From Candidatus Nanopelagicales bacterium (lineage in GTDB: Bacteria; Actinomycetota; Actinomycetes; S36-B12), in NCBI GenBank assembly GCA_040265115.1, contig JBDQGZ010000003.1, positions 1 to 35,520 of the forward strand: a DNA stretch of 35,520 nucleotides, read 5' to 3'. The notes beneath the pieces were generated by a model. The model saw nothing but the letters and a program-made list of their open reading frames with translations. It was not told where the DNA came from and ran no database searches. The position numbers and the translations under genes are program-made. Positions within the stretch are counted from its first letter, which is position 1. Each line of letters opens with the position of its first letter. Positions 22,428 through 32,154 of this stretch are shown piece after piece.

Positions 22428-23363
22428 TCAGGAAGCGGCAACAGCAAGACCGACGGCTGTGGCAACGCTGAGGACGAGCACTCCCTGCAGCACCCCCACC
22501 GCTCCCCGCACGCTCAATCCCCGATCCATGAGCAGATGCGACAGGTGATCGCGCCCCGGGGTGAACGGATGTCGACCCTCGGCGAGTCGGCGCACCACAA
22601 CGAAGGCAGTGTCCAGCACGGGAACAGCGACCAGCAGCACCGGGATCGCCGCGCTCCACGGGAGATTGATGCCCACGGGTCGCAGGCGCAGAGTGACAAT
22701 GGCGAGCAGGAAGCCGAGGAAGTAGGCCCCCGCATCCCCGAGATAGACAGTCGCCGGCGCCCAGTTGTGCCAGAGGAAGCCGAGCGCGATGCCGGCGAGC
22801 GCGAAGGCGAGACCAGCGACAAAGAACTGCCCGTAGAGCGCGGCGATGATGCCGGTGCCGATGGAAGCCACAAGAGTGGTCGAGGCAGCGAGTCCATCGG
22901 AGTTGTCGAGCAGGTTCATTGCATTCGTCAGCCCGACGATCCAGAGCAGGGTGATGAGCAGGTCCAGCCACTCGATGCGCGTGAATGACACCTGTGTTCC
23001 CGCCCACCACACGATCAGGGCGAGGGCGAACTGCGCGACGAGTCGCACCCAGGGATTCAGTGCGCGAACGTCATCGACGAAGCCGAGGGCGGCAACAGCG
23101 AGCGCGGGGAGCAGAACACTCGCGAGCAGCTCCAACTCCGTCGGATCCCCCGAGATCGCCACCGCCGCGAGGAACGCGACCGTGAACGCCAGGGCAACGG
23201 CGATTCCGCCGATCTTCGGGATGGGGCGATCCTGTTGCTTGCGCCCGCCGTCGGGGGAGTCGACCATTCCGGTGCGATGAGCGATCTTGATCGATCCCCA
23301 CACCAGCAGAGTCGACAGCACTGCGGCGCCGACGAATGAGGCGACGTAGAGCCAGGGAGTCAC
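22428..23363 (-). CDS. MraY/WecA family (GT4) undecaprenyl-phosphate sugar-1-phosphate transferase
   Basis: PIPKIGGIA, LGFVDD, NAMNLLDNSDGLA, YLGDAGA and RDHLSH motifs; multi-TM. Confidence 0.92.
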   Translation of the reverse strand: MTPWLYVASFVGAAVLSTLLVWGSIKIAHRTGMVDSPDGGRKQQDRPIPKIGGIAVALAFTVAFLAAVAISGDPTELELLASVLLPALAVAALGFVDDVRALNPWVRLVAQFALALIVWWAGTQVSFTRIEWLDLLITLLWIVGLTNAMNLLDNSDGLAASTTLVASIGTGIIAALYGQFFVAGLAFALAGIALGFLWHNWAPATVYLGDAGAYFLGFLLAIVTLRLRPVGINLPWSAAIPVLLVAVPVLDTAFVVVRRLAEGRHPFTPGRDHLSHLLMDRGLSVRGAVGVLQGVLVLSVATAVGLAVAAS

Positions 23364-23365
23364 CT

Positions 23366-24334
23366 TTAGCTCGAGCGGGTGGAGATGTCTGCGGCGACGT
23401 CGCTGATGATGTCGGACAGGTCGCGCTGCGGGACCCAGCCGAGGAGCTCGCGGATGCGTGCGGTGTTGGGGACTCGACGCGGCATGTCCTCGAAGCCTTC
23501 CTCATAGGCGTCGTCATAGGACACCTTCACGATGGAGGAATCGGACTCGAGTTGCTCAGTGACTCGCTCGGCGAGGCCGGCGATGGAAATTTCTTCATTC
23601 GCACCCACGTTGAACACCTGGCCCTCGGCCTCGCGGGAGTCGACCAAGCCGAGCAACGCACCCACGACATCAGCGACGTGGCAGAAGCAGCGGCGCTGCG
23701 TGCCATCGCCGTAGACGGTGATCGGGTTGCCCTTCAACGCCTGCTCGACGAAGCGCGGCACCACCATGCCGTAGTGCCCGACCTGGCGTGGCCCGACGGT
23801 GTTGAACAGTCGCACGATCACCACCGGCAGGCCCTTCTCCTTCCAGTAGGAGTAGGCCAGCACCTCCTCGATGGCCTTCGCCTCGCTATAGGACCAGCGG
23901 GTCTTCAACGGCGAGCCGAGGATGCGGTCGTCGTCCTCGCTGAGCAGATCGGAGTCGTTCTTTCCGTAGATCTCACTCGTGGAGGTGACGAGCACCTTGC
24001 GACCGTATTTGTGGCACTTCTCCAGCACGATCTCACTGCCGCGGATATTCGTGGCAAGGCTCTCCAGCGGTCGACCCACGATCAGCTCAACGCCGACCGC
24101 GGCCGCAAGGTGCATCACCACATCCGACCGGCGCACCGCATCGTCCACCACCGCATCATTGAGGATCGAGCCCATGACGAACTCGAAGTTCGGGTTGCCC
24201 AGATGGTCACGGATATTGTCGTGGCGGCCGGTGGACAGGTCGTCGAGGACCAGCACCTGATCACCCCGCGCCAACAAGGCATCCACGAGATGGGACCCCA
24301 CGAAACCGGCTCCCCCGGTGATCAATACGCGCAT
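23366..24334 (-). CDS. NAD-dependent nucleotide-sugar epimerase/dehydratase
   Basis: ITGGAGFVG, HLAAAVG, STSEIYG, YSEAK (YxxxK), RLFNTVGPRQ and GDGTQRRCF motifs. Confidence 0.92.
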   Translation of the reverse strand: MRVLITGGAGFVGSHLVDALLARGDQVLVLDDLSTGRHDNIRDHLGNPNFEFVMGSILNDAVVDDAVRRSDVVMHLAAAVGVELIVGRPLESLATNIRGSEIVLEKCHKYGRKVLVTSTSEIYGKNDSDLLSEDDDRILGSPLKTRWSYSEAKAIEEVLAYSYWKEKGLPVVIVRLFNTVGPRQVGHYGMVVPRFVEQALKGNPITVYGDGTQRRCFCHVADVVGALLGLVDSREAEGQVFNVGANEEISIAGLAERVTEQLESDSSIVKVSYDDAYEEGFEDMPRRVPNTARIRELLGWVPQRDLSDIISDVAADISTRSS

Positions 24335-24413: not shown

Positions 24414-26462
24414 CTAGCGTTTGGGGCGCAGCGTGATGGTCAAGGAGGGACTCGTGCCGGCGGAGCTCACCGCCTGCACCTGCATCCGGTGCCTCTTGCC
24501 CACCGCCAACTTCGTCACCTTCACGCCCTTCGCCTCGGGCACTCCCGGCTGCACGGTCTTCCAGCCCGACCACTTCTTGCCCGCCTTGCGGATCCGGTAG
24601 CGATAGGAGTCCGGCTCCATGGAGTCGAAGGACGACCAGGTCCAATAGACCGTCGCAGTGGCTTGTCGACCGCGGATTCGATAAGCGACGTCGAGGTACT
24701 CCGGTCTACTCGGCTTCGTCGCCGCCTCCGCCTGCACGGTCACGGTGTTCGAGGTCGCCGACCATTCACCGGCTCCAGCGTCGTTCACCGCGCGGACGCG
24801 GAACACATACGAGCCAGCGGACAGTCCGCTCACGGTCCTGCTCACGGTGTTATCACCCGGCCCGGAGGCATCAATGCCCTGGGTCGCCAGCCATGGCAGG
24901 TAGTTCGCCAGTCGCGTGTAGACACCGGGCGTCATGCCGTAAGGCGCGGGATCCCCGTCCAGCATTCCGGCGCAGCCATAGCCCCAGCTCACCACGCCGA
25001 CCAGGACGGCGCTCGATCCTCTGCCCGCCACCAGGGGACCGCCGGAGTCGCCCTGGCAGGTGTCGATCGGCTGCGCGGTGCTCGTCGAGCCACCCGCGCA
25101 GATCATGGAGGAGGAGAGGTAACTCGAGCCGAGGCCCTCATAGGTCACTCCACCGACGGTGTAGCGCCCTGAGGTAGACCCGCACACCGAGTCCGGGATG
25201 ACCGTGAGGTCGGCAACCTTGAAGGTCGAGGGATTCGATCCGCCGCTGGACAGCCGCCCCCAGCCAGCGGAGGTCACCGAGGACCCGCCTGAGGTGAGGC
25301 TCGCTGCCTGCGCTGCCGTCGGGATGGTGACAGTCGGTGCACCGGCGAACGGCTGGGAGAAGGTCAGCACGGCGATGTCGTTTGCTTCGGTTCGCCTGTT
25401 GTAGTTCGGGTGAATGGTGAAGTCGGCAGCTCGAACATGCGAATAGGGCTTCGCACCATCATCCTCGAGTGCCGCGCTCACATAGGAGATCTCATTCCCA
25501 TCCTCGTCGTACATGCAGTGCGCGGCGGTGATGATCTTCGTCGGTGACACCAGCGACCCACCGCAGACATAGCCACCACCATCTCGAGCAGTCATGCGAA
25601 GGGAGGTGAGAAAGTCGAATTCACCCGATATCGGATTGCGGCCATTGACCACATCAGGCCCCACCACGACGTCGGCGCGGGATGACGACGCCGTCACCGA
25701 CTCCCAGGAGCCGCCATCGCGCTGCGCCTGCACCCCGTACCCGATCACGTCTCCCGAGGGTGGTGTGAACTCGAGCGAGACTGCCCCACTAGAGGTCACA
25801 CTTGCCGTCAGTGAGGTGGGGGCGTCGGGAAGATCGGGTGTGGGGTCCGGCGGCCCATCGACTGATTCCCGAATGGGAATCGCGGGCATCGGGCTCTCCG
25901 GCGCCTCATCCTGATTGCCGAATCGATCTTGAACAAAAACCGAGAATGACGCCTCATCGAGTCCGAGAGACCGCCACGACACGTACACCGCCCAGTAGTT
26001 GCTCCCCCGGTACCACTCAGCCTGCAGTCCGGTGTCGGTGTAGTCAGAGCTCGCGTCGTACTTGTAGATGTCCGAGTAATAGAACTTCGCTTCCTCCATG
26101 TACTCCAATGGGATCGACGTCGCGTAGAACCCGTCAGGGTCATCGGCCGGGATGATGTACGCGGTCACGGTCGCGTCAGGATCGCTTGACAGCAGCGGAT
26201 CGGTGTCACGATCCATGACGATCCCAATCCGCACTTCATCCGGGAAACGCTTCGGCACACCCGCGCTGAAGGAGATGATCTCGCAGTACAGCCCGGTGCA
26301 GTCGTAGGCAGGATCGGACTCCTGCCAGAGCACGTAATAGTCCTCATCGGCGACGAGAGCACGCTCCCGCTGTGCGTCCGGCTCCGCTTGGGCGGCGGTG
26401 GTGGCGAGAAAGCTGGCCACCACGCCAAGTGATGCAGCAATCGTGACAACTCGGCGGAACAT
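24414..26462 (-). CDS. Secreted trypsin-like (S1) serine protease with FN3 domains
   Basis: Signal peptide ending AQA|E; VVNG, CGGSL, TAAHC, NDIAVL, GWG, DTCQGDSGGP, VSWG and PGVYTR motifs; FN3 motifs YVFRVRAVNDAG and MQVQAVSSAG. Confidence 0.92.
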   Translation of the reverse strand: MFRRVVTIAASLGVVASFLATTAAQAEPDAQRERALVADEDYYVLWQESDPAYDCTGLYCEIISFSAGVPKRFPDEVRIGIVMDRDTDPLLSSDPDATVTAYIIPADDPDGFYATSIPLEYMEEAKFYYSDIYKYDASSDYTDTGLQAEWYRGSNYWAVYVSWRSLGLDEASFSVFVQDRFGNQDEAPESPMPAIPIRESVDGPPDPTPDLPDAPTSLTASVTSSGAVSLEFTPPSGDVIGYGVQAQRDGGSWESVTASSSRADVVVGPDVVNGRNPISGEFDFLTSLRMTARDGGGYVCGGSLVSPTKIITAAHCMYDEDGNEISYVSAALEDDGAKPYSHVRAADFTIHPNYNRRTEANDIAVLTFSQPFAGAPTVTIPTAAQAASLTSGGSSVTSAGWGRLSSGGSNPSTFKVADLTVIPDSVCGSTSGRYTVGGVTYEGLGSSYLSSSMICAGGSTSTAQPIDTCQGDSGGPLVAGRGSSAVLVGVVSWGYGCAGMLDGDPAPYGMTPGVYTRLANYLPWLATQGIDASGPGDNTVSRTVSGLSAGSYVFRVRAVNDAGAGEWSATSNTVTVQAEAATKPSRPEYLDVAYRIRGRQATATVYWTWSSFDSMEPDSYRYRIRKAGKKWSGWKTVQPGVPEAKGVKVTKLAVGKRHRMQVQAVSSAGTSPSLTITLRPKR

Positions 26463-26560: not shown

Positions 26561-27706
26561 CTAATAGCTGAAGGGCCACGCCTTGAAGTAGTTGCGCACT
26601 CTCAGCCACAGGCCATAGAGCCCTCGTGGTTCCAGGATGAGGAACACAATGATGAGGACACCGAAGATGATCGACTGCAACTCGAAGACGTTGAGCAGAC
26701 CACCCTGGCCGACGCCGGGATCGATCGGCAGGAATCCGGTGAGGGAATTGACCAGCTTCGGGAGGAGGACCACGAAGACCGCGCCCATGATCGAACCGGT
26801 GATCGTCGCCAGGCCACCGATGAAGATCACGGCGAGGAAGTCGATGGAGAGGAAGAAGTTCCAGGTCTCCGGCGAAATGCGACCGATGATGATCGACAGC
26901 AGGGCCCCGGCGATTCCGGCATAGAAGGCCGAGATCGCGAAGGCGAGTGTCTTGGTGCGCAGCAGCGAGACACCCATCACCTCCGCGGCGATATCACGAT
27001 CACGCACCGCAGCGAAGGATCGACCAAAGCGCGAGCGGGTGAAGTTGCGGGCGAGCAGCGCCATGACCACGAAGATCACCAGGCAGGTGAAGTACAGCAT
27101 CGTGAAGCGGTCGATTTCGATGCCGCCCACATCGCGGTTCTCGAATAGGTTGAAGCCGAGGAACACCGGCTCCGCAGGAGCGCGACCAACACCGGCACCA
27201 CCAGTGATCGGCTTGAGCTCTTTGAAGATGTGTTCGCCGATGAACACCAGGCCGAGGGTGAGAATCGCCAGATACAGGCCCCTCACCCGGGCGGCTAACG
27301 GGGCAATGATCGCTGCCACAACCGCGGGCACCAGCCCGGCGAGCGGCAACCAGATCGCCATATCCCAGCCCAGCCCGATGACATCTCCTCGCGATTCACC
27401 GCCGAGAACCGCCGCGGTGTAGGCGCCGACGCCGAGGAAGAAGGCTTGGGCAAGCGACACCTGACCGGCGTAGCCGGTGAGGAGGTTCAGCCCGATACCG
27501 CCGATAGAGAAGATGAACACCGTTGCTCCGAGCGCGACGAGGTCGCGGGCGAGGAAGAACGGCAAGACGACGAGCGCCACGAACCCGATGACGATCCACA
27601 GTCGCTTGGCACCGGTGTTGAAGATCGCCATTTCCGAGCGGTAGTTGGTGTACAGCCTCGGGCGACCACGGGTGGTGTGCTGGGACTTGCTGGCCGCGGA
27701 ACTCAT
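26561..27706 (-). CDS. Liv-type ABC transporter permease (LivM-like)
   Basis: GLNLLTGYAGQVSL, GLYLAILTL, SRFGRSFAAVRDRDIAAEVMG and IGGL motifs. Confidence 0.93.
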   Translation of the reverse strand: MSSAASKSQHTTRGRPRLYTNYRSEMAIFNTGAKRLWIVIGFVALVVLPFFLARDLVALGATVFIFSIGGIGLNLLTGYAGQVSLAQAFFLGVGAYTAAVLGGESRGDVIGLGWDMAIWLPLAGLVPAVVAAIIAPLAARVRGLYLAILTLGLVFIGEHIFKELKPITGGAGVGRAPAEPVFLGFNLFENRDVGGIEIDRFTMLYFTCLVIFVVMALLARNFTRSRFGRSFAAVRDRDIAAEVMGVSLLRTKTLAFAISAFYAGIAGALLSIIIGRISPETWNFFLSIDFLAVIFIGGLATITGSIMGAVFVVLLPKLVNSLTGFLPIDPGVGQGGLLNVFELQSIIFGVLIIVFLILEPRGLYGLWLRVRNYFKAWPFSY

Positions 27707-28599
27707 ACCCGGACCACCTCCTTAGTGCCGTAGAGGCCGTAGGGCCGGATCATCAGGACCACGATCATGATGATGTAGGGAACGATCACATCGAAGTTGG
27801 CACCCAGCCACGGCGCATACAGCGGCTGATAGGTGCGGGTGAGCGACTCAGCGATACCGATAATGAGTCCGGCGACCACCGAGCCCTTGATGGAATCGAG
27901 CCCACCGAGGATGATCACCGGCAGGGCCTTGAGGGCAACGAGCGCGAAGGTCGTTTCCACCCCCGAGGTGCCCGCGACGAGCATGGCGCCCGCGAGAGCG
28001 GCCATCGCTCCAGAGATTCCCCAGGACAGGCCGAACATCCGCCCGACGTTGATGCCCTGCGCGAGGCTCGTCTCCTGGTCGAACGCCGTGGCGCGCATCG
28101 CAAGGCCTGTGCGCGAACGGGTGAGGAACAGCCCGACGAGACCGATGGCGAGGAGGCCCACGATGAGGCGGGCGATGTCGACGGTGAAGACGCGAGCGCC
28201 GAGGAACTCCAAAGTGTTGAGTCCGAACGGATCGTTCACAGTGAGGAGTTCTGAGCCGAGCAGTCGGCCCGCGATGATGAGCAGAACGATAAATAAACCG
28301 ACGGTCACCGTCGCCGCAGAAAACGCAGGTCTGCCCACCATGGGACGCAACGCGACTCGCTCCGACAGCATGCCGATCGCCGCAAGCACGATCATCGCGA
28401 GGATGACCGAGATCACGAAGGGCAGACCGATGCTGACGCCGAAGTATCCGGTGAAGAAGGCACCGAGGATCATCAGCGCGGGTGTCGCAAAGTTCACAAC
28501 CCCCGTGGCGCGATAGATGATGACGAAACTGACGCCGAGCATCGCATAGACGCCACCGATTCCCAGACCGCGAATCAGCGAGCTAAGCAATTCACCCAC
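27703..28599 (-). CDS. Liv-type ABC transporter permease (LivH-like)
   Basis: IYRATGVVNFA, SRTGLAMRATA, ILGGLDSI and RPYGLYG motifs; ATGA overlap with the downstream permease. Confidence 0.93.
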   Translation of the reverse strand: MGELLSSLIRGLGIGGVYAMLGVSFVIIYRATGVVNFATPALMILGAFFTGYFGVSIGLPFVISVILAMIVLAAIGMLSERVALRPMVGRPAFSAATVTVGLFIVLLIIAGRLLGSELLTVNDPFGLNTLEFLGARVFTVDIARLIVGLLAIGLVGLFLTRSRTGLAMRATAFDQETSLAQGINVGRMFGLSWGISGAMAALAGAMLVAGTSGVETTFALVALKALPVIILGGLDSIKGSVVAGLIIGIAESLTRTYQPLYAPWLGANFDVIVPYIIMIVVLMIRPYGLYGTKEVVRV

Positions 28600-28602
28600 G
28601 TG

Positions 28603-30513
28603 TCACTCCTCGACTCGTGCGACGACGATGACGTCAGATTGATCGCCACCAGGCAGAGCATCTGCTCCCGAATACATGTCGTCGATCAAGGGGCCGAACG
28701 TCTTGGTGAGCGCGGATCGCTTCACCTTCTGGGTCGCGGTGAGATCACCGTCCTCGTGATCGAGGGCCTTGGTGATCATGCGGAATTTCCGCAGATTCTC
28801 GACCCGAGCAGTCGCTTCATTGGTCTGCGCGATGATGCCCTGCACGAGTTTGAGGACCTCCTCACGCTCGGAGAGATCCCGATAGGTGGTGTAGGGGATG
28901 CGCTTGGCGCGCGCCCATTCACCAACGGTGTCCTCCTCGATTCCCACGAGGACGGTCAGATAGGGACGCTGATCTCCGATGACGATCGCCTCGCGAATAA
29001 ACGGGGACGCCTTCAGGGAGTTCTCCAACTCCGAGGGTGAGATGTTCTTGCCACCCGCGGTGATGATGATGTCCTTGATCCGGTCGATGATCTTCAGGTG
29101 GCTTCCGTCCACCCACTCACCCACATCCCCGGTGTGCAGCCATCCATCCGCATCGAGCGTGTCGGCGGTGGCCTCTGGCTTATTCCAATACCCCTTGAAG
29201 TTCCCTGGGTGTCGGGTGAGGATCTCGCCCGTCCCTTCGGCGAGCTTCACTTCAACTCCCGGCTGCGGCTCGCCCACCGTGCCGAGCTTGATGCGGCCGC
29301 GCTTATTGCTCGTCGCCACCGCACTGTTCTCGGTCATGCCGTAGAGCTCGTTGATGCGCACACCCATCATGAAGAAGAAGAACAGCACTTCCGGCGAGAT
29401 GGGAGCGGCGGCGGACGCGGATGCGCGCGCCTTTTGCAAACCGATGCGCTCACGCAGTGCGCGATAGAGGAAGACATAGCCGAAGGCATAGCGGATCCGG
29501 CTCCACAGCGTGTGTTCACCACCGTTGGCGAGCATCGAATTCGCGATGCCGCGGCCCACCTTCATCCAGAGCATGTAGTTGGCCTTCTTGATCCAGGAGG
29601 CGGCTGCCATCCGAACCTCGACACCGGCCTTGAGCTTCTCCCAGATGCGGGGGACGGCGAAGAACAGGGTCGGCTGCACCTCCCGCAGGTTCGTGGTGAC
29701 GGTGTCGATCGACTCCGCGAAATGCACGACCGCGCCGGACACCGCATTCGTCCACGTCGTGACGGCTCGCTCCGCGACGTGGCACAGCGGCAGGTAGGAC
29801 AGGATCACGTCGCTCGGATTCGGCGGCGGTTCGTAGAGCCCGCCGCCGTTGACGATGACACCGCTGGCGAACTCGACGTTGGCGTTGCTCAGCATCGCAC
29901 CCTTGGGCGGGCCGGTCGTCCCCGAGGTGTAGACGAGGGTGACGATGTCTTCGGGCTCCACCTCTCTCGCGATGCGATCGAGCGCATCGGGGAATGCCTC
30001 ACGGTGCGCGCGACCCCGGTCGATGAACGCCTGCCAGTCGAGCAACTTCGGGTGATCGATCGAGGAGACACCGCGCGGCTCGAGATAGACGATCCACTCA
30101 AGGTTCGGGCACTGGTCTTCCACCGCAAGTGCCTTGTCGACCTGCTCTTGATCCTCGGCGATGAGCACGCGGGTGCCGGAGTCGGCGAGCAGATAGGCGA
30201 CCTCAGGAGCCGGGTTCGTCGGGTAGAGACCGACGGTGATGCCGCGGATTGCATTGATACCCAGGTCACCGAAGAGCCACTCCGGTCGGTTCTCCGAATG
30301 GATCGCCACCCGATCACCGGTGTCGAGGCCGAGTGCGAGCAGTGCATGGCCCACCAGGCTGATCTGCTCGGCGTAGTCATTCCAGGTGATGTCTTGCCAC
30401 ACGCCGAGTCGCTTCGCCCGCATCGCCACGCCGTTGCCTTCGAAGGTCGCGCGTCGCTGGACCTCCTTGAGCAGCGTCCATGTCGTGGTCGTGGAGTCAG
30501 CCACCGCCGTCAT
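28603..30513 (-). CDS. AMP-dependent long-chain acyl-CoA synthetase (FadD-like)
   Basis: YTSGTTGPPKG, SYLPLCH, YGMTE, GWLHTGDVG, DRIKDIIITAGGKNISP and LTATQKVKR motifs. Confidence 0.93.
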   Translation of the reverse strand: MTAVADSTTTTWTLLKEVQRRATFEGNGVAMRAKRLGVWQDITWNDYAEQISLVGHALLALGLDTGDRVAIHSENRPEWLFGDLGINAIRGITVGLYPTNPAPEVAYLLADSGTRVLIAEDQEQVDKALAVEDQCPNLEWIVYLEPRGVSSIDHPKLLDWQAFIDRGRAHREAFPDALDRIAREVEPEDIVTLVYTSGTTGPPKGAMLSNANVEFASGVIVNGGGLYEPPPNPSDVILSYLPLCHVAERAVTTWTNAVSGAVVHFAESIDTVTTNLREVQPTLFFAVPRIWEKLKAGVEVRMAAASWIKKANYMLWMKVGRGIANSMLANGGEHTLWSRIRYAFGYVFLYRALRERIGLQKARASASAAAPISPEVLFFFFMMGVRINELYGMTENSAVATSNKRGRIKLGTVGEPQPGVEVKLAEGTGEILTRHPGNFKGYWNKPEATADTLDADGWLHTGDVGEWVDGSHLKIIDRIKDIIITAGGKNISPSELENSLKASPFIREAIVIGDQRPYLTVLVGIEEDTVGEWARAKRIPYTTYRDLSEREEVLKLVQGIIAQTNEATARVENLRKFRMITKALDHEDGDLTATQKVKRSALTKTFGPLIDDMYSGADALPGGDQSDVIVVARVEE

Positions 30514-30562
30514 CGTTCACCCCTCGAGATCTCGTGGTTCGTCATCCTGGTTGTCATCGCCG

Positions 30563-31342
30563 TCACATCACTTCTTCGCCCAGGTAAGCCCGGATGACGT
30601 TCGGATCGGCCTGGACGACCTCGGGGGTGCCCAGAGCGATCTGCTCGCCGAAGTCCAAGACGAGCACCCGGTCAGCAAGATCCATGACTAAGCCCATGTC
30701 GTGCTCGACGAGGATCATGGAGATCCCCATCTCGGATCGCACGTCGAGGATGAATCGAGCCATGTCCTCGGTTTCCTCGACGTTCATGCCCGCCACGGGT
30801 TCGTCGAGGAGTAGCAGTTTGGGCTGCATCGCGAGCGCACGTCCGAGTTCCACGCGCTTTTTCACGCCGTACGGCAACATCCCCACGGGGAAGGTTCGGT
30901 AGCTCTCGATGTCGAGGAAGTCGATGATGTCCTCGACCACTGCACGGTTTTCGACCTCCTGGCGACGCACCTTCGGGGTGAACAGGAAGGAAGAAAGAAC
31001 CGAATAGTCCATGTGGCTGCCCCGACCCAGCATGAGGTTGTCCAGCACAGTGAGGTTGTCGAACAACTCGATGTTCTGGAACATGCGCGACACACCGAGG
31101 TGAGCGATCTTCTCCGGGGTCAGGCCGATGAGCTCCTGATCGGCGAAGACGATGCTCCCTTCCTGCGGCTTGTAGACACCCGAGATGCAATTGAAGATCG
31201 ATGTCTTTCCCGCACCGTTGGGGCCGATCACGGCGAAGAGCTCGCCCTCGTTCACCGAGAAACTGACACCGCGCAGGGCTTTCGTGCCGCCGAAGGACAG
31301 CGCGAGATCCGTCGCCTGCAGGATCGAGCTCAACTCAACCAC
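30563..31342 (-). CDS. ABC transporter ATP-binding protein (LivG-like)
   Basis: GPNGAGKT Walker A, LPYG signature, LLLDEP and VEHD; the true start may be TTG 31333, overlapping the upstream stop. Confidence 0.93.
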   Translation of the reverse strand: MVELSSILQATDLALSFGGTKALRGVSFSVNEGELFAVIGPNGAGKTSIFNCISGVYKPQEGSIVFADQELIGLTPEKIAHLGVSRMFQNIELFDNLTVLDNLMLGRGSHMDYSVLSSFLFTPKVRRQEVENRAVVEDIIDFLDIESYRTFPVGMLPYGVKKRVELGRALAMQPKLLLLDEPVAGMNVEETEDMARFILDVRSEMGISMILVEHDMGLVMDLADRVLVLDFGEQIALGTPEVVQADPNVIRAYLGEEVM

Positions 31343-32154
31343 CTCTTGCGTCGCCGGTACTGCTTCACATCTCGCAGCGATCCACGTTCGTCACCGCGCA
31401 GGCCGAGATAGAACTCCTTGACGTCGTCGTCCTCGCGCAACTGAGCCGCCGGCTTGTCCATGACGATCCGACCGGTCTCGAGCACGTATCCGTGGGTGGC
31501 GATCGACAACGCCATCGAGGCGTTCTGTTCCACCAGGAGGACCGACGTCCCCGACTCGTTGATCTGCACGATCAGGTCACGCAATTGCTGGATGATCTTC
31601 GGCGCCACACCCAGGGATGGTTCGTCGAGCAGCAGGTACTTCGGCTGAGACATGAGGGCTCGGCCGATCGCTAGCATCTGCTGCTCCCCGCCCGAGAGAT
31701 AGCCGGCCGTCTGCTTCCGGCGCTCAGCCAACACGGGGAACATCGAGTAGGCCCGCTCCAAACCCTCGGCAATCTGGGCTCGGGTCGCGGTGTGCCCTCC
31801 GGCGCGCAGGTTCTCATCGACGGTGAACTCGCGGAAGATCCGCCGACCCTCCATTACCTGGCCGATCCCCGAGGCGACGATCTCCGGCGCCGACTTCCCC
31901 TGGATGTCCTCCCCGTCCAGGCTCACCCGGCCCTTGGAGATCTTGCCGCGGTGCACGTCGAGCAATCCGGTGATCGCCCGAAGAACGGTGGTCTTGCCGG
32001 CTCCATTTGGGCCGAGCAGAGCGACGATGGACCCTTCGGGAACCTGGAGACTGACCCCCTTCAAGACGAGGATCACATCCTCATAGACGACCTCGAGGTT
32101 CTCGACCGCGAGCACCGTCCCTCCCCTCGTACGAGCCATCGGTGACGACGGCAT
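31330..32154 (-). CDS. ABC transporter ATP-binding protein (LivF-like)
   Basis: GPNGAGKT, LSGGEQQM, LLLDEPSLG, VEQN and C-terminal YRRRKRWL; AGGAG RBS 8 nt upstream. Confidence 0.94.
   Translation of the reverse strand: MPSSPMARTRGGTVLAVENLEVVYEDVILVLKGVSLQVPEGSIVALLGPNGAGKTTVLRAITGLLDVHRGKISKGRVSLDGEDIQGKSAPEIVASGIGQVMEGRRIFREFTVDENLRAGGHTATRAQIAEGLERAYSMFPVLAERRKQTAGYLSGGEQQMLAIGRALMSQPKYLLLDEPSLGVAPKIIQQLRDLIVQINESGTSVLLVEQNASMALSIATHGYVLETGRIVMDKPAAQLREDDDVKEFYLGLRGDERGSLRDVKQYRRRKRWLS

Follow-up and report, generated by a model that had tools for sequence, protein, structure and literature searches.

A trypsin-like protease domain predicted to be nested in a discontinuous fibronectin type III domain of an actinobacterial protein

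Gene P0001 and its interrupted FN3 domain

The minus strand of the 35,520-nucleotide window, by which we mean the whole stretch of Candidatus Nanopelagicales DNA that was analysed (contig JBDQGZ010000003.1), carries at positions 24414-26462 a gene, P0001, for a putative secreted trypsin-like protease of the S1A family. P0001 is a single open reading frame (ORF) of 682 codons and a stop codon, and is the only long ORF in this segment without an internal stop. The protein can be divided into a signal peptide, a beta-sandwich domain without a family name, strands A-C' of a fibronectin type III (FN3) domain, an S1A trypsin domain, strands E-G of the same FN3 domain, and a second FN3-like domain. 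The interrupted domain is called FN3a and the C-terminal one FN3b. The features of the gene, with window coordinates and residue numbers of P0001, are the following:

24414..26462, minus strand: whole gene P0001, 682 codons and stop
26385..26462, minus strand: probable Sec signal peptide, residues 1-26 (MFRR...AAQA/E), from the sequence (basic N-terminus, hydrophobic core, AQA)
25848..26366, minus strand: N-terminal all-beta domain, residues 33-205, from the model; without a Pfam family
25692..25829, minus strand: first part of FN3a, residues 212-257 (strands A, B, C, C'), fn3 profile 1-49
25653..25691, minus strand: linker 1, residues 258-270, of low predicted confidence, ending at the presumed activation site D270/V271; the cleavage is inferred
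24882..25652, minus strand: complete S1A trypsin-like protease domain, residues 271-527, Pfam Trypsin profile 2-220 of 220
24849..24881, minus strand: linker 2, residues 528-538, of lowest predicted confidence (below 50) at 535-537
24732..24848, minus strand: second part of FN3a, residues 539-577 (strands E, F, G), fn3 profile 48-83
24423..24707, minus strand: FN3b, a second, basic FN3-like domain, residues 586-680, fn3 profile 13-78, below the cut-off

The original prediction, made from the DNA sequence, had placed a trypsin domain inside a split FN3 domain at 24735..25829. The present analysis confirms this placement, since the coordinates are exact, the two fn3 matches are complementary, and the Trypsin domain is complete. 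Residue 212, the start of the PDAPT... segment, lies at position 25829, V271 of the VVNG motif at 25652, and T539 of the TVSRTV... segment at 24848, whereas residue 576 ends at 24735. Judged from its sequence, FN3a is a true nested (discontinuous) domain: the inserted protease is complete and is also found as the N-terminal domain of shorter relatives, and the segments of the host are contiguous in homologues. The nested arrangement is well supported by sequence and supported by structure prediction.

The Pfam scan of the whole protein gives fn3 (PF00041) a score of 53.4 bits in three stretches, compared with a cut-off of 25. Residues 205-270 scanned alone match positions 1-49 of the fn3 profile with residues 213-261 (23.3 bits, E 7.4e-5), and residues 530-585 match positions 48-83 with residues 539-573 (24.9 bits, E 2.4e-5). 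Between them, the pieces account for positions 1-83 of the 84 in the profile. Because they are complementary in this way, the pieces appear to be parts of one FN3 domain broken between strands C' and E, and the same point of interruption is given by the family profile described below.

Relatives of P0001 were sought in a collection of 5.8 billion proteins, where 770 of 8000 scored candidates matched; the best 120 of the 770 were listed. Among the matches listed are eight clusters of long forms (P0002-P0009), which are 660-703 residues long and share 43-100% identity with P0001 over 95-100% coverage. One of the eight is identical to P0001, and the other seven are further members of the long form. 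About sixty of the matches listed are short forms of approximately 490-500 residues, in which the VVNG or IVNG start of the protease is located at residue 17-55, just past the signal peptide. NCBI and UniRef source labels are absent from all eight long-form clusters, and some of the short forms are labelled "secreted trypsin-like serine protease". The short secreted proteases (for example P0010, P0014, and P0040) resemble P0001 in a protease domain that is 39-58% identical and has the same xPD/VVNGR start, in the same kind of first FN3 domain, and in a similar basic second FN3 domain. Unlike P0001, they begin with the protease and have an unbroken FN3 domain; P0001 has strands A-C' and an extra domain of 170 residues in front of the protease.

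The alignments place the interruption at the same point. Alignment A1 (13 sequences) shows the short forms to consist of the protease, a complete FN3 domain, and a second FN3 domain. In both A1 and the larger alignment A2, strands A-C' follow directly after the protease in the short forms, whereas the long forms are gapped there and have a similar A-C' stretch in front of the protease. Linker 2 lies exactly where the first half of the FN3 domain begins in the short relatives. In a BLAST comparison with databases of unequal size (56 and 10 sequences), the first half of FN3a has its best match at residues ~295-345 of short forms, in an FN3 domain (42.7 bits, and 29.6 bits for the family of proteins that share the N-terminal domain), and the second half has its best match at residues ~350-400, in the consecutive part of the same FN3 domain (36.2 and 27.7 bits).

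A family FN3 profile of 103 states was built, independently of Pfam, from the unbroken FN3 domains of 66 short relatives only; these are 66 of the 69 short rows of alignment A2, the other three having been dropped because their segment length fell outside 80-125 residues. The upstream piece matches states ~3-58 and the downstream piece states ~57-101 in all eight long forms (4-58 and 57-101 in P0001). When the protease is excised in silico, the FN3 match is kept in all eight, and in three it becomes a single continuous match over states 3-101. The homologues with an uninterrupted FN3 domain that the original prediction had called for are therefore at hand in the 66 short relatives, and five more are found among relatives of the N-terminal domain.

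Conservation follows the proposed domain boundaries. Fourteen positions of the first FN3a piece and ten of the second, including the usual FN3 core, are invariant among the eight long forms, and none is invariant in linker residues 258-268. This pattern of conserved pieces and a variable linker agrees with a folded domain. An assembly artefact was considered and rejected because the same arrangement recurs in the eight clusters, which span 43-100% identity and several sources, and in G003, another genome of the genus.

Predicted structure, protease domain, and presumed activation site

The full-length structure of P0001 was predicted by AlphaFold2 from an alignment of 77 rows with a mean predicted local distance difference test (pLDDT) score of 85.8. 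The first part of FN3a is modelled as strands 216-222, 228-233, 241-248, and 253-256, and the second part as strands 540-544, 550-560, 563-567, and 574-576. The mean pLDDT of ten-residue blocks is 82-93 over residues 211-250, 70 over 251-260, and 81-93 over 541-580. Values below 50 are restricted to residues 1-31, 205-208, 258-272, and 535-537, of which the last two segments correspond to the two linkers. Searches of structure databases with the whole model return trypsins only, and are therefore uninformative about the FN3 domain.

A prediction with residues 209-262 and 534-581 as separate chains, each with an eight-row alignment of long forms, indicates that the two halves of FN3a are compatible with one sandwich. 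The interface score ipSAE is 0.80, 0.80, and 0.82 in three runs, and the best of three controls scores 0.00. The contacts agree to 100% between the runs, and the pLDDT of the partners is at least 85. The contacts with the lowest predicted error are those of residues 242-248 with 552-559, which are antiparallel (strands C and F), 228-230 with 542-544 (B and E), and 220 with 571 (A and G) and with 554. The predicted topology, which may draw on the memory of the fold held by the program, is a canonical seven-strand FN3 sandwich with sheets A-B-E and C'-C-F-G.

The protease domain matches the Pfam Trypsin profile (PF00089) with residues 272-525 over positions 2-220 of 220 (144.8 bits, cut-off 20.6, E 4.5e-42), and the family is matched in all eight long forms. 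The predicted model has the double-barrel fold of chymotrypsin, and its Foldseek matches include 1dlk_B and 4m7g (chymotrypsin and Saccharopolyspora erythraea trypsin) with E values of about 1e-15 and a target-normalised template modelling score of 0.82. The catalytic triad H315, D362, and S473 (His57, Asp102, and Ser195 of chymotrypsin numbering) is invariant in 77 of 77 aligned sequences, which comprise the eight long forms and 69 short forms. D467 (Asp189), D472 (Asp194), and the equivalents of Gly216 and Gly226 are equally invariant. By its residues, the P0001 protease is an active-type S1A enzyme with a trypsin-like pocket, and the residues of the S1 pocket predict specificity for Arg or Lys.

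In S1A proteases the free amino group of residue 16 pairs with Asp194, which matures the active site. The reading of VVNG as the N-terminus of the mature protease, part of the original prediction, holds: V271 is homologous to the N-terminus of mature S1A enzymes and is located in the linker of low pLDDT. In mature chains of the enteropeptidase light chain (3w94_A), crayfish trypsin (2f91_A), and a variant of Streptomyces griseus trypsin (3i77_A), its aligned counterpart is residue 1. The context xPD/VVNGR is common to the long forms and the short relatives, in which it follows the signal peptide. Because of this homology, the flexible linker, and the shared context, it is reasonable to expect cleavage within the FN3 loop, and by analogy the long forms would be cut between D270 and V271 in linker 1. 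The two residues before the scissile bond are PD in seven of the eight long forms and PQ in one. The residues at P1, immediately before V/I-V-N-G, are distributed as follows:

Long forms (n=8): Asp 7, Gln 1
Short forms (n=69): Asp 34, Glu 15, Arg 8, Lys 6, Asn 3, Gln 3

The cysteines of P0001 are C55 and C60 in the N-terminal domain and six within the protease, with none in residues 212-270 or 528-682. An inter-chain disulfide is therefore impossible, and after the presumed cut the chains 27-270 and 271-682 would be held by the shared FN3 domain and by any interfaces between the domains.

A proposed two-chain protease held by a shared FN3 domain

We consider it probable that P0001 is a secreted active-type S1A protease, the whole catalytic domain of which is an excursion from the C'-E loop of FN3a, and that the activation cut produces two chains clasped by the FN3 domain. 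The chain is predicted to run from the N-terminal beta-sandwich through FN3 strands A-C', out to the protease, back for strands E-G, and on into the second FN3 domain. As long as linker 258-270 is intact, V271 would have no free amino group and the protein would be a zymogen. An endoprotease, probably other than the enzyme itself, would cut after Asp270, and the freed V271 would form a salt bridge with Asp472 (Asp194), so that the active site matures. The products would be chains 27-270 and 271-682, without a cysteine for a disulfide between them, and the interdigitated FN3 domain, through pairing of strands B with E, C with F, and A with G, would keep them together. The N-terminal domain would therefore stay on the active protease. 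The nested domain is the better supported part of this account, and the two-chain clasp is a reasonable inference from it.

Several observations weigh against this account. Each FN3a piece taken singly falls just under the Pfam cut-off of 25 bits. After excision of the protease, five of the eight long forms remain as two adjacent family-profile matches across ~25 leftover linker residues, so that the check on the spliced sequence held for the presence of an FN3 match and, for its continuity, in the other three forms. The placement of the domains relative to each other is uncertain because the full-length model has a predicted template modelling score (pTM) of 0.48. Halves of a known fold can pass a two-chain test from the memory that the program has of solved structures; the pass therefore indicates compatibility with one FN3 domain in the right register, not binding. 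Among solved complexes 116 of 157 attain this ipSAE mark, and among mismatched pairs 2 of 215; these calibration counts hold only roughly here, since the alignment used was our own of eight rows. The contact of the halves in the intact protein rests on the pLDDT values and the two-chain prediction. Lastly, Asp at P1 does not match the predicted Arg or Lys specificity of the enzyme, which makes self-activation at D270/V271 unlikely and a cut by another protease probable.

The same mismatch, for Asp or Gln at P1, would also fit a nested domain that is real but undergoes no activation cut. P0001 would then work as a single chain or as a permanently zymogen-like binding protein, and FN3a would position the protease beside the N-terminal domain. 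The neighbouring genes encode an epimerase and Liv-type transporter components, not a protease partner, and no activating protease was identified, which also fits. We nevertheless regard the absence of a cut as rather unlikely, because all 77 sequences keep the complete activation apparatus unchanged, with the V-V-N-G start and Asp194, and V271 aligns with residue 1 of mature chains. In addition, linker 1 is predicted to be flexible, and the short relatives must shed at least the signal peptide a few residues upstream of the VVNG motif. A different fate of the clasp, in which the split FN3 domain replaces the disulfide non-covalently and is undone or exchanged by force, unfolding, or strand swapping to give a releasable or oligomerising protease, seems unlikely to us.

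Pairing of the FN3 halves between molecules would give domain-swapped dimers or chains of proteases, especially after the activation cut. The two-chain prediction shows that the halves fit without telling intramolecular from intermolecular pairing, and the flexible linkers of 13 and 11 residues (pLDDT below 50 in 258-272 and 535-537) would allow an exchange. However, halves on the same chain gain a large effective concentration during folding, and the model of the full-length monomer keeps block mean pLDDT values of 70-93 (residues 211-260) and 81-93 (541-580), which leaves swapping quite doubtful. It is very improbable that the two parts of FN3a are degenerating remnants of a fusion of genes and a later deletion and no longer fold together, in which case the first would serve as a linker or belong to a propeptide. 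The three closest long forms have a PGxxT motif behind the protease, a weak hint of a deletion in a trypsin-FN3-FN3 parent, and each part scores below the Pfam cut-off when taken singly. Against this, eight of eight long forms retain both parts, and these have an invariant FN3 core even where identity drops to 43%, whereas the linkers vary; both parts are also modelled as ordered strands, for which canonical pairing in register is predicted.

The clasped two-chain protease favoured here can be compared with known systems. Chymotrypsin, enteropeptidase, TMPRSS proteases, and coagulation factors are cut before I/V-V-x-G, and the N-terminal chain stays attached. In these two-chain S1A enzymes a disulfide joins the chains, whereas in P0001 a shared beta-sandwich is predicted to do so non-covalently. 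Engineered FN3 fragments reportedly reassemble with high affinity, to go by the title of a study by Dutta, Batori, Koide and Koide (2005, Protein Sci 14:2838). Such complementation is the physical behaviour that the clasp needs; the system is artificial, unlike P0001.

In the insulin receptor, the CC' loop of the second FN3 domain (FnIII-2) contains a disordered insert that includes the furin site, and the beta chain supplies the remainder of the domain, according to the available parts of the two sources (PMC10573852; PMC7039211). In those parts, FnIII-2 of the insulin receptor and IGF-1R resembles P0001 in that a loop insert with a processing site leads to a mature FN3 domain made of two chains (PMC10573852; PMC7039211). 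The insert of the receptor, as these excerpts describe it, is in the CC' loop, largely disordered, non-catalytic, and cut by furin, and alpha-beta disulfides reinforce the link, whereas that of P0001 lies between C' and E, is a folded protease, and has no linking cysteine. Residues 267-270 of P0001 (GPD) contain no basic site of the furin type, and there is no homology beyond the FN3 fold, which makes the receptor domain an analogue rather than a member of the same class.

RTX (repeats-in-toxin) adhesins project ligand-binding domains from split domains, as stated in the accessible part of PMC12077191. As in P0001, a beta-sandwich of their Ig-like stalk is opened in a loop from which another folded domain emerges (PMC12077191, same part). 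The adhesins described there are giant Gram-negative proteins with binding domains as inserts and no cleavage, whereas the insert of P0001 is an enzyme with its own activation site in the host loop. The statement in the original prediction that FN3 domains normally flank catalytic domains rather than host them was overstated, given the split hosts of insulin receptor FnIII-2 and the RTX adhesins. Split FN3 or Ig-like hosts are thus already known, and a search of one open-access library returned no trypsin or other protease nested in an FN3 domain, nor any enzyme so nested with its activation site in the host loop.

For the study of protein evolution P0001 is a clean case, because the same protease domain is seen at the N-terminus of short relatives and an FN3 domain of the same kind is unbroken in two related families. 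For protease biology, an activation site in the host loop predicts a two-chain enzyme with a shared sandwich instead of a disulfide. The FN3 C'-E loop appears to tolerate an enzyme of 257 residues, which is relevant to the engineering of monobody-type scaffolds and protease-gated switches. The family is small, comes from uncultured actinobacteria only, and is known here from sequence and prediction.

Relatives, origin, and flanking modules

An exhaustive HMMER search with residues 1-270 finds 178 proteins at E ≤ 0.001, most of them through the FN3 piece alone. The N-terminal domain is matched by 17 proteins of 184-416 residues, and a scan of these 17 gave no Trypsin match. In five of them (P0128, P0146, P0168, P0194, and P0203) a contiguous fn3 match above the cut-off covers profile positions 2-83, with a second FN3-like domain behind it; in two others the contiguous fn3 match is weaker. 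By sequence, three architectures thus share modules: N-terminal domain-FN3-FN3; signal peptide-trypsin-FN3-FN3; and N-terminal domain-FN3 (A-C')-trypsin-FN3 (E-G)-FN3. The N-terminal-domain relatives (P0122-P0248) mostly have N-termini that resemble signal peptides by eye, followed by one or two FN3-like domains. A DxxxDCxGxxCEI motif and W133, D155, and P158 (A4 numbering) are conserved in this family.

The survey of genomes covered 41, namely the genome of the window, a 1.9-Mb assembly that is 85% complete, and 40 relatives. A full-length match is present in the genome of the window and in G003 alone, which belongs to the same genus (60% identity over residues 3-681). G001 contains a fragment at the end of a contig (residues 1-84, 98% identity). 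Searches of 21 further genomes of the family and 16 of the order gave no long form, and a pattern scan of public species genomes with residues 1-270 gave one locus, again a contig-end fragment (1-84, 98%). Among the 17 frames with a GDSGGP motif that were listed, only L001 and L005 are long forms. Within the genomes searched, the long form is confined to one genus-level group. Four matches appeared to reach beyond the protease on its upstream side (query from residues 199-232); by eye their frames are ordinary signal peptide-protease forms, and the apparent extension was spurious alignment.

In the tree of the protease domain, 58 short forms group together with support 94/94; next to this clade stand the long forms, as a clade or a grade, and more distant short forms lie outside. 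A single origin of the long forms is allowed by this tree; against it, the best tree needs two changes, and the long forms group as one clade in 8% of the bootstrap trees. Every outgroup is a short form, and the simplest reading is therefore that the nested arrangement is derived. The long form probably descends from relatives with the order signal peptide-trypsin-FN3-FN3 and from the N-terminal domain-FN3-FN3 family. Either the protease was inserted into a gene of the latter type, or the two were fused and the strands A-C' behind the protease were then lost. In the three closest long forms, the PGxxT motif retained after the protease is aligned to PGAPT, with which the short-form FN3 domain begins; together with the greater similarity of both FN3a halves to the short forms, it weakly favours fusion followed by loss. 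Direct repeats in the junction DNA are short and chance-like, and no repeat marks an insertion.

The genome of the window contains a second, short-form trypsin-like protease (L002, G000:C100:1476-2282, plus strand), a frame of 496 residues that is 40% identical in the protease domain. L002 has cysteine pairs within its two C-terminal FN3-like domains, which the gene in the window does not have. A further frame of 1188 residues (L003/L004, G000:C10:2688-3122, plus strand) contains FN3 repeats 47-48% identical to the second half of FN3a. In another genome, the 955-residue frame L014 (G014:C37) comprises a trypsin domain, one FN3 domain, and a long C-terminal region. By eye this region looks like a hydrolase of the SGNH/GDSL type (GDSF...SxGGNNF), in which case the protein would be a protease-esterase fusion.

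No Pfam family matches residues 1-204 with an E value below 0.19. The N-terminal domain modelled alone from 25 rows is an all-beta sandwich (pLDDT 95.3, pTM 0.90). The best match in a wide structural search is the C-terminal region of glucodextranase (1ulv_A) with a Z-score of 8.5 and a root-mean-square deviation of 3.4 over 137 aligned residues. The starch-adherence protein Sas6 (7uwu_A, Z 8.2), 2ivf_C (Z 7.8), and a putative carbohydrate-binding protein (4jpq_B, Z 7.3) follow. Such values are middling and count against reading much into them, since the best matches of models without a true counterpart typically reach Z 7-8. Foldseek with this domain finds nothing at E ≤ 0.001, the best match being 2ivf_C at 3.9e-3, and in an Atlas feature search a Glucodextran_C cluster scores 0.91 and shares 161 features. 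The predicted fold points weakly to sandwiches of the glucodextranase-C, CBM9, or DOMON-like types, and, as a lead only, the domain is possibly carbohydrate- or wall-binding.

FN3b, when residues 579-682 are scanned alone, matches fn3 profile positions 13-78 with 22.1 bits (E 1.7e-4), which is below the cut-off of 25 bits; its ten-residue blocks have mean pLDDT values of 83-97 in the full-length model. The domain is very basic (YRIRGR..., KAGKKW..., and a terminal RPKR). A similar basic C-terminal FN3-like domain is present in the N-terminal-domain family, the short proteases, and the long proteases, and in BLAST FN3b scores 46.2 bits with the first of these and 38.5 bits with the short forms. 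FN3b may be a shared anchoring or binding module. Neither a sortase motif nor a membrane segment was seen by eye.

Upstream of P0001, a run of genes on the same strand (26561-32154, minus) includes two genes for Liv-type branched-chain amino-acid permeases (26561-27706 and 27703-28599), a gene for an AMP-binding enzyme (28603-30513), and a gene for an ATP-binding cassette ATPase (30563-31342). The AMP-binding gene is located within the Liv transporter cluster. Downstream, also on the minus strand, are genes for an NAD-dependent epimerase/dehydratase (23366-24334) and a glycosyltransferase of family 4 (22428-23363), which suggests that a pathway for cell-envelope sugars is encoded beside the protease gene.

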